NCBI GenBank assembly: GCA_965235115.1
Contig: OZ249436.1
Location: forward strand, 36,272,001-36,336,000
Source of the DNA: Laetmonice hystrix
Lineage: Eukaryota
Length of the DNA stretch: 64,000 bases
Reading direction: 5' to 3'
Positions 15,701 through 24,700 of the stretch are shown here, in pieces. The position numbers and the translations under genes are program-made. Below the pieces are notes generated by a model. It searched no databases, was not told the origin of the DNA, and worked only from the letters and a program-made list of their open reading frames with translations. Every line of letters starts with the position of its first letter. Positions within the stretch are counted from its first letter, which is position 1.

Positions 15701-18700
15701 ATCATAGGGCTGGCCAGTTCTCGTGTCCTAGATAGGCAAACATGCGAGAAAGAGCGAGAATGGGGACAAACAGAGGATAGTCTCGTCAGCTTAGCATTGC
15801 TACGCCCATAGGGACCAGCGACTGTCAACTTCAAAATATTTTTGCTCCCCAATGAGAGCACTTTGAGTCTTGAGCTTTACAAATATGATTAATTAACAAG
15901 TTTACTGAATGAAAAAGTACATTTTACATGTAAGAAGTTAAAATTTTTACACACAGCCTGATTTTAGAAATTGTTGTTACTGAGCCTATGTTAAACCTAT
16001 GGGCAATTTGTGACGTCACATTGTTTGTCCCCAAAGCGCAAGTGGTTTGAGGTTATTTTACGTCATTTGCATATCCAGGACACAAGACTGTCCAGCCCTA
16101 TTGTAAAGGTTACACAACAAAATTGTTTATAGAAAGAGATCAAAAGTATTGTCACCCTGGCTTAAGTTGAGCTGACAGTGCACAAAGCGACCAATCACTC
16201 ACTCACCCACTCACTCGGTGCATGTATAAGGAATAGCAATACACCAACGCTTATTAACGGCTGTTATATGGGCCAGGGGGCCATATTACACCGAGGGCTA
16301 AGGAAAGGGTGCAGTTGGACTGAGTACAGTGCAGCTTCAGGAAGTCAACCTCTTCATTATTAGCATCATAAGTTGTCACCGGTTTAAGCAAGGCAGCTTA
16401 AATGTGTGGCAATCACCCAATCAAAAATGTTAAGCTTCAGCTTAAGAGAGATGTCTTAGTATCACAAACCGGGCCCTGCTGATATATCAAAATATCCACA
16501 TATCGATTGTGTGATGATTTGTCGTTTCAGTTGCCACTCAGCGTGAGGAAATTCTGTCAGTCATTGGAAGCATAAAAGATGAAGAAAAAGTAGAAAGGTA
16601 AATGTATATTTTGACAAATAGAATACTTCAGTTCTAATGACTTGTCAGCACAATACTGCGTTTTTGTCTTGTCCAGCATCTCATTGAAGGTCTTCTTATT
16701 ACATTGTTGAATATAGAGCATTAAGTGTAGAACACAAGATCTAAATGGTTCTATGACTTTCAGACTGCGAGCCCGTATACGTCGTGATACAAGTCAGTCA
16801 TGTGACAGCGATTTAGGCTCAAGATCTGGTTCAGTCTTGAAGTTAAGTAAGAGTGGGTCACATGCTGGCTCAAGAGCGAACTTAGGGTCCAAGACAAGTC
16901 TACACCGAGCAGGGTCCCTCAAACGTCATGCCGGAGAAAAGTGTCAACCTCTTAACTTGAAGGATGGAGATGGAGAGAAAGATAAACTCATACAGGCAGA
17001 AACATCAGAGACAGGACGGGTGAGAACAATTCCAGATCGACTTCAAAATGAAACACTTGTGATAAATCTGAACAAATAAAATTGGCTTAACAGCCAAACA
17101 TTGTTGTACAGAATTAACAGATTTGCCGTGGTTTATTTTATAGGTGAAGCTGTCTGTCTTCTTGGCGTACCTGCAATCTGTGGGTATTCCCATCACAGTG
17201 ATGATTCTAGTGTTGTACCTTCTCAACAATGCTGCGTCAATCTATGCCAACATTTGGCTGAGCGAATGGTCCAATGATGTTTCTAATGCTGTTAATGGGA
17301 CCATCGACGAAGCCCAGCGAGATCTACGCCTTGGAGTCTACGGTGCCCTGGGACTTGCTCAAGGTCAGTGTTCAAGTTTACTCAGGATACATGTCTACTA
17401 GGTGCAAGCTAAGTTCATCCGAGCTTCTTTGCGTGGTGGAGCAAAAGTACAAAGGATTTTAATAGAGTTCGCATATAACAGCCTTGCATATACCAGACAA
17501 TCGCCTATAACGTACTGAAACTGGAAGTCCCGGTCCCGTCTAACGATAATTCAAATTACTGTATAGATCTATGCATATAACAGACATGTAAGAGACAAAA
17601 ATCTCTGGTCCAAATCAGTACCTTATATGTGAAGTCTGTACAACCTCTCGGGGGCAAGTATAGAGTGAAAAATAGCTTAACAGTGTAACTCTGATATTTT
17701 GTAATTAGGGCTGGCATTATGGCTTGGCCTCTGGTGAATTTAAATGAAATGAACCCTATGTCTGGATACATTGCCATAGGAACGTAAGGATGAATAATTG
17801 TAGGGTGCCTTGAGATCTGCAGTGCCTTTACCATGGCCATGGGAGGCATAGTCGCTTCCCGTGTCCTTCACCGTGCTATGTTACAAAACGTACTCCACAC
17901 ACCACTCCTCTTCTTTGAGGTGACACCTTCTGGAAGAATTATGAACCGGTTTTCTGAAGACACCGCCGAGGTGGACATGGTCATGCCATTTACCATACGC
18001 TCCATGATAAATGGGACGCTGCAGGCCCTGTCTACAGCCATCGTGGTTGGCATGACAACGCCTTACGTGCTGACAACCGTGCCACCATTAGCCTTCTTAT
18101 ACATATCCATGCAGGTAGACCAATCAGAAATATGATAATACAAGATAAGGACCCCACTGATAAGAAACTGTACAGTTCTCTCTGGACGCACCCTAACCCT
18201 TTGTGCTCAGTACCTGATCCCTTCACTTGTACAAAACACAGCAGTGGGCCCAGTTTTTCAAAAATTCTCAACTTGAGTAAAGCTTACTTAAGTAAACCAA
18301 CAGGCTTTTGATTAGCTAGTCTGCTTAACCAGCCAATCAGAAGCCTGTTAGTTTACTTAAGTAAGCTTTACTCAAGTTGAGAATTTTTGAAAAACTGGGC
18401 CCATGCTTTACTTAATTTATACAGTAGACTTACCCGTGTACAAATCTTTGAGCACTGTATTATTAAAAACTATAAGTATAAGCCAGGGCCCAGGCCATAA
18501 TGACCATAATAAAATCCCTGACATTTATCTTATATAAATATTATGACCTAATGATTAAACCTACTTACTGTAACTAGCATTGATTGCTGGGGATAAACCT
18601 GTAGGTACTTCTTGAAATCGTTGAGATGATGCACTAAAGTTCGGGGGTTTAAATGGCAGGAAAACCTCCGAAAGGAATGTATTTCTTGAGTGGCGTTTCC

Positions 18701-21700: not shown

Positions 21701-24700
21701 GGGTGCCCTTGGTACCCTGTTTGTGATCGGCTACAGCACAGCGTACACTCTGATTGTTGTACCATTTCTGGCCGTTATATACTTCCTCATTCAGGTATTG
21801 CTGCCACGGGCTGGAATGCAAGGCTTCTAGTTCTAGACGAATGTCAGCACCATGTGTTTATTGGGTTTTGTTTGTCTTTCATCTAAAATGCTTGGTATCT
21901 ATTCTTATTTGGGTCGGTGTGATCTTACACTTGGCGACCACATGATGTGTACTTCTGGATGTAGTAACACTGACCTTGTAGGATTCTTCCTAAATGCTCT
22001 ACTGACTTAGTTCTTCTTGTCTGTCCTTCATGTCCCTCTGATTTGTTTTTGTCATCACAGCCGTCAGGCATAACCTCGACTTAGAAATCTTGGTGAACGT
22101 TGGAAACAATGGACTAAGACAGGCGTGATGTACTGTGATGTTGGGCCATTTAGGTCTCCAAGAACCAAGACATCCCCATCGTCCAAAACCCCTTTTCACC
22201 ATTCTTGAGATGAACAACATGTTTTATGGTAACATGTGTTCGCACAATCTGATGATGTGGTCTGGCCTCACCAACAAAGTATGACAGGAATATCTGTTCA
22301 GACTGTTCGATTGGAAGGCTGCAAGCTGCTGATTGAGAGAATGTTTTGATGAGATCCTTAAATACAGGAAGATACGTGCAAAAATGGCCTGGAGCTTCAG
22401 ACAAAAGGTTCTTTGAAGTGGTTGTCGGACATTCATCACTGCTAGAAGTTCCGATTCAGCTGCCCTCGTGGAAGGAACAGTATTATATCGGGGGGAGGGG
22501 GGCCGATCATGCGGTTGCTTGGGGCAGTACGCGTAAGTTTTGAGAAAAAAAAGGGGGGACCAAAGCATGGCAGAGCATGGAGCACGGGGCACCGGAACTT
22601 AGCGACCAGGGCATGGACTGAGATTGACGGGACCTTTAACGAGAGAGTGGATCTCAGCATGGTCGGCTGGATAGGCCACCTCTCTTTGTGAAAGGCCCAA
22701 TGTTTCCCTTGTATCGGTATAGACTATAGTGCATAGAAAGCTGGGATGAGTGTAGATTCAAGGAAACATTAATGTTAAACGAGTTCGGAGTTTCTAATGT
22801 ATAGGCTATAATTTTTAAAACGCTCTGGTGGCTGGTGCACACCCTACAGGGTCCCACCAGGTGGGAATGCCCTCCGTCACCCCGAAGAACCCCATCAGAA
22901 ATCCCCACGCTCTGCTTTTAGCCTTTAGTCCTGTAGTCCCCCTTACTGAATTCCTCATAGATATCCGTAGCTTGCCTAGAAAAGACCGGGCTATCTCTAG
23001 GTAAACAGTTTTGATTTACAAGACTACCCGTATTATTAGCTAGGAAAGTCGCAATGTCTTTCTTGACGAGGGGCTTAGCAGTACGAGCTCGTTACAGCCC
23101 TTAGGCTAGTCGACTTAAGCGGCTGATACACGCTGTGACTTACGATTATTTGTCACCGACTATTTTCGTGAAAAATCTAGCACTGCTAGATATCTTCCGA
23201 CCCGAGGATTCGTTGCCGACGATTGTTGTAGGGTATGATACACGTCACGACTTACGACTATCATGACTGTTTTTAGCGCTAAAAACTGGGTCACGACGAA
23301 AATTTATAGCGTGTATCACCCGCTTTACATTTTAAGAAACCAGTACACATGATTGCAGATTGCATTTTGTAAGTTAAGCGGGTGATACATGCTGCGAATT
23401 TTCGTTGAGACCCAGTTTTTAGCGCTAAAAAACAGTCGCCAACTATTTGTCGGCGACAAAAAATCGTAAGTCGCAGCATGTATCACCCGCTTAACTGGCA
23501 CGGTTGGAATCATTTGTAATGGTTGGTTGGTTGTGTAGCCTGCCACGAATTTCATGATACTCGCAAAATTCCCTAACTCGATCTTCGGGCACGAGTTTAA
23601 GAGAATTTGTGATGAAAGGTGGGGTAAAGGGTTGCTAATATTTTGGCTGCATGAACCTCTTATTATTACATAGTTGTAGTCAGTACTATTAAAGTTCACC
23701 CTTTTTTTACCTATCTGCTTTCCATACGGCCTGTAGGTGTGACGGTCTACATCGCAGCCTTTGCACTAGCTTACGGGGCCCTCAAAGCGTCCCGTCATCT
23801 TCATGCCAACCTCCTCCTCCACTGCCTCAAGTCCCCAATGACCTTTTATGACACCACGCCAATGGGACGCATCGTGAACCGGTTCTCTAAGGACGTTGAT
23901 GTCATCGACACCCTTGTGCCCCGTAACATTGAACTGTGGATTAAATGTACGGTTCACGTCATGGCCACAGTATTCGTCATCAGCTACAGCACACCCTACA
24001 TTCTCTTACTCATCCTGCCGCTCGCCGTCTTCTATTATGCCGTACAGGTATTCCCCCCCAAATTTTATTCTGTTTTTGGTCAGTTTTGATTTAGTTTAAT
24101 GCGAAATAAATCGTGGGGACTAACTAACACCGACCAGTGGATACTAATTCCCTGTTAATTGCATGCACGCAAGGTAGAAGGATTAGGGCGCTTTGATTCT
24201 TGACACATTGCAGCAGGTGGCGCCACCTTGCGTCTGCCATTCTGCCATCCCGTGCACACAGACACGGCAGTGCCATGACGGCATCGAGAGAACAGGCATG
24301 GATGTCATACATGTTTGACGTTGCATTGAGTAGGTGTTAAGATTCCAGAATGATATTCAGGCTGACCATCCTTGAATTCCTGACCTGAAGGATACGGCTC
24401 CTCACATTCTGGAGATTGTTGCAGCTCTATGCCATCAGCTCCGTGGCTGCCGTGGAACCCAGTTAATGTTTCTCAGCTAGGGAACACATACTCACTCGTC
24501 TTAATTAAAGACAGTTTTCAGCAGGACTAGTCCTGTGCCTGTGGACCTCTTGATACGGGAGATCCACAGAGTGCTGACAGTTAAACGTAACACGAGGTCC
24601 GCGTCAGCTACGGTCAACCACAACCAACACACAACCACTGCATACACCATCGCTATACTCCACTGCCGATTACTCTACCACACTCATTACTACTTGTTCT

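Follow-up and report, generated by a model that had tools for sequence, protein, structure and literature searches.

We describe an ABCC1/MRP1 transporter gene of the annelid Laetmonice hystrix in which four tandem exons, here denoted B1 to B4, very probably form a mutually exclusive cluster, their splicing being deduced from the genomic sequence. The gene lies in a stretch of 64,000 nucleotides (nt) of contig OZ249436.1 (positions 36,272,001 to 36,336,000 of the forward strand); this whole stretch is referred to below as the window. A mutually exclusive MRP1 cluster is, as such, an expected and already known feature of invertebrates. What may be new are the B1 class of variant, which is shared with other phyla, and a pair of exons, A1 and A2, at transmembrane helix 7 (TM7) of the same protein. 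A preliminary description of the window, which had reported the B exons, overlooked both this additional pair and the relatives of B1 in other phyla.

The four B exons and their host gene

All four paralogous 311-nt exons were found where the preliminary description had placed them, each preceded by AG and followed by GT, running from phase 1 to phase 0, and stop-free in a single reading frame, the one beginning at base 3 (Table 1). The exons are adjacent and equal in length, phase and splice-site type, which is the make-up of a tandem-duplicated cluster, and all exceed the Pfam ABC_membrane cut-off. Pairwise they are 35-51% identical in amino acids (aa) and 46-59% in nucleotides, and they align without gaps. 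Searches of the window by tblastn, a protein hidden Markov model (HMM) and nhmmer found no fifth B copy (the next HMM match had an E value of 1.1), and apart from A2 no other host exon has a duplicate there. B3 and B4, together with flanking intron, and most of B2 are covered by long contigs from three DNA-like runs of a single sample; B1 is covered by none of the long read-derived contigs among those listed, and the rows listed for these runs contain no splice joints.

Any one of the four B exons gives an open full-length frame, whereas in all 11 multi-exon subsets, as well as in the empty subset, translation ends prematurely, 1020-2006 nt ahead of the final exon junction. Even the inclusion of all four copies, which arithmetically restores the frame (1244 mod 3 = 2), meets a stop inside B2. 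Because every other subset meets a premature stop, one B copy per mRNA is the sole productive outcome, in agreement with the preliminary argument that zero, two or three copies would shift the frame.

The B copies also differ from each other in a way that fits maintained exons. In all six pairs, identity is highest at the second codon position (0.64-0.73), intermediate at the first (0.43-0.67) and lowest at the third (0.29-0.38). When neutral decay to the observed identity was simulated, even with indels forbidden, AG/GT ends and an open frame survived in 0.2-0.6% of runs per copy. Codon positions and simulation together fit a picture in which all B copies are maintained under purifying selection. 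Their donors form a group apart: none of the four B exons has G at position +5, which is present at 20 of the 23 constitutive donors (Fisher p=0.002). We propose that the spliceosome would join donor 17363 to a single one of the four B acceptors, and the weak donor of that exon to 25933; transcripts carrying none or several of the copies would meet an early stop and would probably be removed by nonsense-mediated decay.

The exons of the host gene, from 3603 to 28598 on the forward strand, make a single open frame of 1403 aa that ends in TGA and has the architecture TMD0-L0-TMD1-NBD1-TMD2-NBD2 (TMD, transmembrane domain; NBD, nucleotide-binding domain). More TMD0 exons lie 2-3 kb 5' of the window (L033:6996-8048). 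The protein aligns over its whole length with MRP1-like proteins at 58-67%; the best full-length matches among 240 proteins compared were from Owenia (66.6%), a chiton (64.1%) and Capitella (63.7%). Taken without both variable regions, it is placed among annelids (FastTree 0.997, 45 rows; IQ-TREE 89/64, 21 rows). FastTree sets it with ABCC3 and with the amphioxus and urchin orthologues (0.997), separating it from ABCC2 and the remaining long paralogues, and IQ-TREE with lophotrochozoan orthologues (81/87), the deeper forks being weak. By these alignments and trees the gene is a lophotrochozoan ABCC1/MRP1 orthologue, which upholds its earlier naming as MRP1, and its product is predicted, as a member of this family, to be an ATP-driven exporter of glutathione conjugates. 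Vertebrate ABCC1 and ABCC3 belong to the same orthologous group, and the pocket residues of the former map directly onto the host protein. The exon lengths of 311, 200 and 178 nt are presumably those of human ABCC1 exons 23, 24 and 9; to our knowledge, the B exon is single in vertebrate ABCC1.

In six ABCC paralogues no duplicated B exon was seen. At C1:66.65, C4:23.0, C6:9.2, C6:29.0, C21:22.1 and C21:22.3 Mb the B-exon match is uninterrupted and single; the 20 kb around the first of these loci hold one B and one A match, while the single full-length matches at the other five are lower bounds.

A candidate exon pair at TM7

Further upstream in the gene, exons A1 and A2 are candidates for a second, two-way mutually exclusive cluster. 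They are identical at 20 of 59 aa; the frame is open with A1 alone or with A2 alone, and both or neither lead to early stops. At 44% nt identity the pair again shows the second codon position most conserved (0.39/0.58/0.37), A2 has a weak donor, and in the decay simulation an intact exon survived in 0.35% of runs. An intact A2 at this divergence therefore argues for its use. The choice between A1 and A2 would do for TM7 what cluster B does for TM13-15, and with the four B exons would allow up to 8 isoforms.

Several observations speak against a fully functional A2. Of 12 highly conserved positions, 4 are altered in it (L381R, G392N, M393G and Y404F, with conservation of 85-98% across 88 homologous segments), none of 284 proteins that have this segment carries a second A copy, and no variation at the A position appears in 11 isoform sets. 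A2 may thus be rare or impaired.

These results have to be weighed against other accounts of the two clusters. If one B copy, for example B4, were used and the rest were decaying duplicates, it would be natural that B1, B2 and A2 are the farthest from typical MRP1. Yet all copies have kept their exact length, their splice sites and an open frame despite their divergence, the codon-position pattern and the rarity of intact copies in the simulation both oppose decay, and B1 is conserved across phyla; we regard this account as very improbable. Splicing of the B copies in series into a longer protein has a seeming parallel in database proteins with 2-6 copies in a row (23 of 120 matches). These entries, however, hold truncated and hybrid copies, as prediction errors would, and the stops in all multi-copy subsets refute serial splicing at the sequence level. 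An assembly artefact is equally hard to maintain, the B copies being far too divergent for haplotypes and read-derived contigs spanning B3 and B4, and we give these two explanations together almost no weight. For A2 the matter is closer. Cluster B could be real while A2 is unproductive, either a poison exon or a seldom-used copy that gives an impaired pump; this is what its four unusual residues and its absence from other proteins and isoform sets would suggest, and in human ABCC1 L381A reduces export of glutathione (GSH), according to PMC12647609. But A2 shares length, phase and splice dinucleotides with A1, is open at a divergence that few simulated copies survive, has the codon-position pattern and weak donor of a used exon and, being in frame, would not trigger decay. 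An unproductive A2 therefore seems unlikely to us, and use of both A exons remains our preferred interpretation.

Table 1. Features of the host gene in the window. The four-letter strings give the residues at bovine pocket positions 1088/1092/1096/1099.
Feature	Position	Strand	Description
Host ABCC1/MRP1 gene	3603..28598	+	24 constitutive exons and the two clusters, A and B
Exon A1	7712..7889	+	178 nt, phase 2→0; canonical TM7 exon, MRP1 348-406; L381, F385, F389 kept
Exon A2	8544..8721	+	178 nt, phase 2→0, AG/GT, open; candidate second mutually exclusive cluster
Constitutive exon 5' of cluster B	17144..17363	+	220 nt, ends in phase 1
Variable exon B1	17804..18114	+	311 nt; PFTxRSM class common to molluscan and nemertean variants; F/S/G/Q
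Variable exon B2	19996..20306	+	311 nt; acidic TM14 face, E/D/C/E; amphioxus variant nearest, not firmly
Variable exon B3	21484..21794	+	311 nt; Q/F/T/G
Variable exon B4	23737..24047	+	311 nt; R/L/C/H; with annotated Capitella exon (97/92)
Constitutive exon 3' of cluster B	25933..26132	+	200 nt, starts in phase 0, GC donor

Kinship and age of the B variants

Annotated isoforms of other animals swap the same segment, consistent with the preliminary statement that tandem exon clusters were already known for MRP1 of other invertebrates. In these database annotations, which are not experiments, a single block (model aa 897-1000), whose ends coincide with those of the B exon, varies in 10 of 11 species sets, among them amphioxus, mussels, clams, oyster, chiton and urchins; it does not vary in the Aplysia set. 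The 9 isoforms of B. floridae fall into 5 types; in Ruditapes all 6 isoforms are of different types, as are all 4 in Mercenaria and all 3 in both Mytilus trossulus and Lytechinus variegatus, and Liolophura has 2. The block of insect isoforms has the same start and is shorter (aa 897-970), varying in 4 of 8 insect sets. Grailles et al. 2003 reportedly described clusters at exons 4 and 8 of Drosophila dMRP, which thus resembles the present gene in having two variable regions, one per core membrane domain. The dipteran block in TMD1, as seen in Lucilia, lies however at aa 406-443 and not at aa 182-241 as does cluster A, and the exon for aa 406-443 is single here. In sea urchin ABCC1 an alternative exon is said to change efflux properties (Gokirmak et al. 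2016); Lytechinus isoforms differ at exactly the B exon, and the urchin variants group with none of B1-B4 in our exon tree.

B1 groups with variants from outside the annelids. Its best match is an exon of the nemertean Lineus (49%), and its motif P-F-T-x-R-S occurs in only 6 of 482 segments, from Nucella, Mytilus (twice), Ruditapes, Saccostrea and Lineus, with a near form in Elysia; the host proteins of these variants fall with the lophotrochozoan orthologues (81/87). For the exon tree we dropped 12 of 81 rows (8 whose origin is unknown, a partial one, 2 that have hybrid junctions and a distant paralogue). In the resulting 69-row tree, whose bootstrap had not fully settled, a clade of seven rows unites B1 with Lineus and five molluscs (support 99/96), and the same clade receives 100/99 in a 24-row tree. 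When 366 segments were ranked by a profile of only the 5 molluscan sequences, B1 came first and Lineus second, with B2, B3 and B4 at ranks 353, 155 and 78. With 24 rows, the approximately unbiased (AU) test rejects monophyly of B1-B4 (p=0.0007), as it does a single clade of all annelid rows (p=0.0009) or of all mollusc rows (p=0.001); across the 24-row and 69-row sets, forcing B1-B4 together costs 49-54 log-likelihood units. The shared B1 clade and the rejected monophyly with 24 rows therefore suggest that at least for B1 the duplication is older than the split of annelids, molluscs and nemerteans. An origin of B1 from an ABCC paralogue was also considered and does not hold, as the best paralogue match is 43% and no paralogue falls in the B1 clade.

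The published view is different. Invertebrate MRP1/ABCC1 arrays (PMC6071210, PMC8791459, PMC9741552) share with cluster B the family, the tandem homologous exons and the TMD2 segment, and the exon duplications are cited there as multiple and independent across phyla (PMC6071210, citing Yue et al. 2017), whereas here one variant is common to three phyla. We found no cross-phylum orthology of MRP1 exon variants in the literature searched, a weak negative since the key papers lay outside its reach. Annelids, including Capitella, are reportedly covered by the study of Yue and colleagues.

Could the cluster have arisen within the lineage, with B1 resembling molluscan and nemertean variants through convergent selection on pocket residues? 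Beyond the view just cited, a number of our own results count in that direction and against common descent. The similarity signal lies mostly in the pocket-facing columns 51-73 (z 4.9 inside, 0.8 outside); by a simple BLOSUM score outside these columns B1 comes no higher than rank 83 of 338 when compared with the molluscan class; monophyly of B1-B4 is not rejected in two of three four-copy AU tests (p=0.058 with 69 rows, p=0.069 with columns 51-73 removed); the 24-row set was picked after the first tree had been seen; and the exon trees rest on 103 columns. However, the clade of seven rows persists when columns 51-73 are left out (85/93), as does the pair of B1 and Lineus (96/90), and outside the motif B1 scores first of 337 against Lineus. 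The six segments with the rare motif are all molluscan or nemertean, B1 shares rare residues at positions 1078, 1081, 1082, 1089 and 1094, and the end branches of the 24-row tree are not long. Convergence thus appears unlikely, though not remotely so, and common descent the better reading; the B1 class PFTxRSM probably goes back to the lophotrochozoan ancestor.

The other copies are harder to place. The nearest variant to B2 is from amphioxus (50%; 93/82 in the 69-row tree, 88/66 in a later tree), and homologue searches found no close B2 homologue, the best reaching 52-53%. B2, amphioxus and the last insect exon form a five-row group (93/82) in which B2 is a long branch; B2 ranks 4 of 369 by an amphioxus profile and 254 of 364 by an insect profile. 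B4 has its partner in Capitella (Table 1), and B3 is unplaced. One may imagine a combinatorial pocket made of a B1 class from the lophotrochozoan ancestor, a B2 class (amphioxus, last insect exon) from the bilaterian ancestor and a TM7 switch of the worm. We put this forward tentatively, as a doubtful extension, and its bilaterian part, resting on a long branch, is much less sure than the part on B1.

Pocket residues, exon choice and other features

In an alignment of equal spans, B4 corresponds to MRP1 residues 1028-1129 of a 1530-residue chain. The preliminary description had the exons rebuild TM13-15; the B exon indeed matches MRP1 at about 1028-1130, including the TM14 residue M1092, and a span of TM13-15 is consistent with the topology of the transporter. 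The aspartate at human 1084 and the core P-x-G-R-x-x-N-R are invariant in B1-B4. For ABCC1 structures, PMC12647609 describes vincristine contacts at Q1088 and M1092, anchoring of estrone sulfate and of a cyclic dinucleotide by S1096 and N1099, and substrate contacts of L381, F385 and F389 in TM7; it also reports that human M1093A alters drug susceptibility and that E1089A has little effect on vincristine. Residues 1088, 1092, 1096 and 1099 map into cluster B, and 381, 385 and 389 into cluster A. Each B choice would install a different module of TM13, intracellular loop, TM14 and TM15, keeping the motifs for folding and for coupling to the ATP-binding domains and presenting a TM14 pocket face that is basic/polar (B1), acidic (B2), or hydrophobic or mixed (B3, B4). 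Because these pocket residues differ among B1-B4, the variants likely give pumps of different substrate range, judging by the bovine and human ABCC1 structures.

Decay of out-of-frame messages can clear wrong products; it cannot choose the exon. A steric or U2/U12-incompatibility model does not fit introns of 1.2-1.9 kb (1177-1942 nt within cluster B) that are all GT-AG and lack donors of the U12 type. In docking-site clusters such as those of Dscam and insect MRP1, a single docking site in an intron pairs with a selector next to each exon. For MRP1, competition between such docking/selector pairs has been reported in insects and in amphioxus, and the arrays of Yue et al. 2017 are cited as having them; none was detected in the present cluster. 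A site near 24578 stood out in a loose docking-site scan (0 of 20 shuffles as good), but a strict scan, which required overlap and one docking site common to the exons, did no better than chance (30 of 174 shuffles). The candidate site, 24568-24592, pairs with 20707-20725 and about 21844, and better with an unrelated intron at 5478; a perfect-helix scan found no downstream docking site, and the inverted-repeat list contains mostly repeat elements. The choice would most likely be made by weak donors together with competing intronic RNA pairing like that of insect MRP1. Long inverted repeats with high read depth in the cluster B introns (18245-18403, 18689-19190 and 23115-23496) are probably small transposons.

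Elsewhere in the gene, the intron after 26132 is of the GC-AG type, with the donor GCAAGT, and the intron of the NBD1-TMD2 linker contains a 24-nt AG/GT segment (14212-14235), a candidate microexon that would insert 8 residues in frame. A tandem repeat of about 33 nt at 4072-4545 has as its unit a copy of the end of exon 4024-4085 plus its donor site. Beyond the gene, a 696-codon open frame at 37849-39936 on the opposite strand matches PF14637 (folliculin-interacting protein middle domain) and marks a neighbour gene, and repeats are found at about 35100-36400 (55-nt spacing) and at 45235-46163 (low-complexity, proline-coding).

Clusters of this type are a trap for automatic annotation, as the preliminary description had warned: in database proteins P0001-P0022, from insects, a barnacle and bivalves, 2-6 alternative exons are wrongly joined in series. 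Since gene callers fuse or drop such exons, the host gene needs manual annotation.

The four B variants constitute a natural, testable series of pocket swaps at residues that bind drugs and conjugates in human ABCC1, and such swaps are relevant to the export of pollutants by marine invertebrates. If the ancestry proposed for B1 is true, exon duplication that is commonly cited as convergent is partly common descent. The variant has then been kept across phyla for over 500 million years, in which case it likely serves a conserved substrate; and if the far less certain reading of B2 is also true, two or more alternative substrate pockets were already available to the ancestor of the bilaterians.

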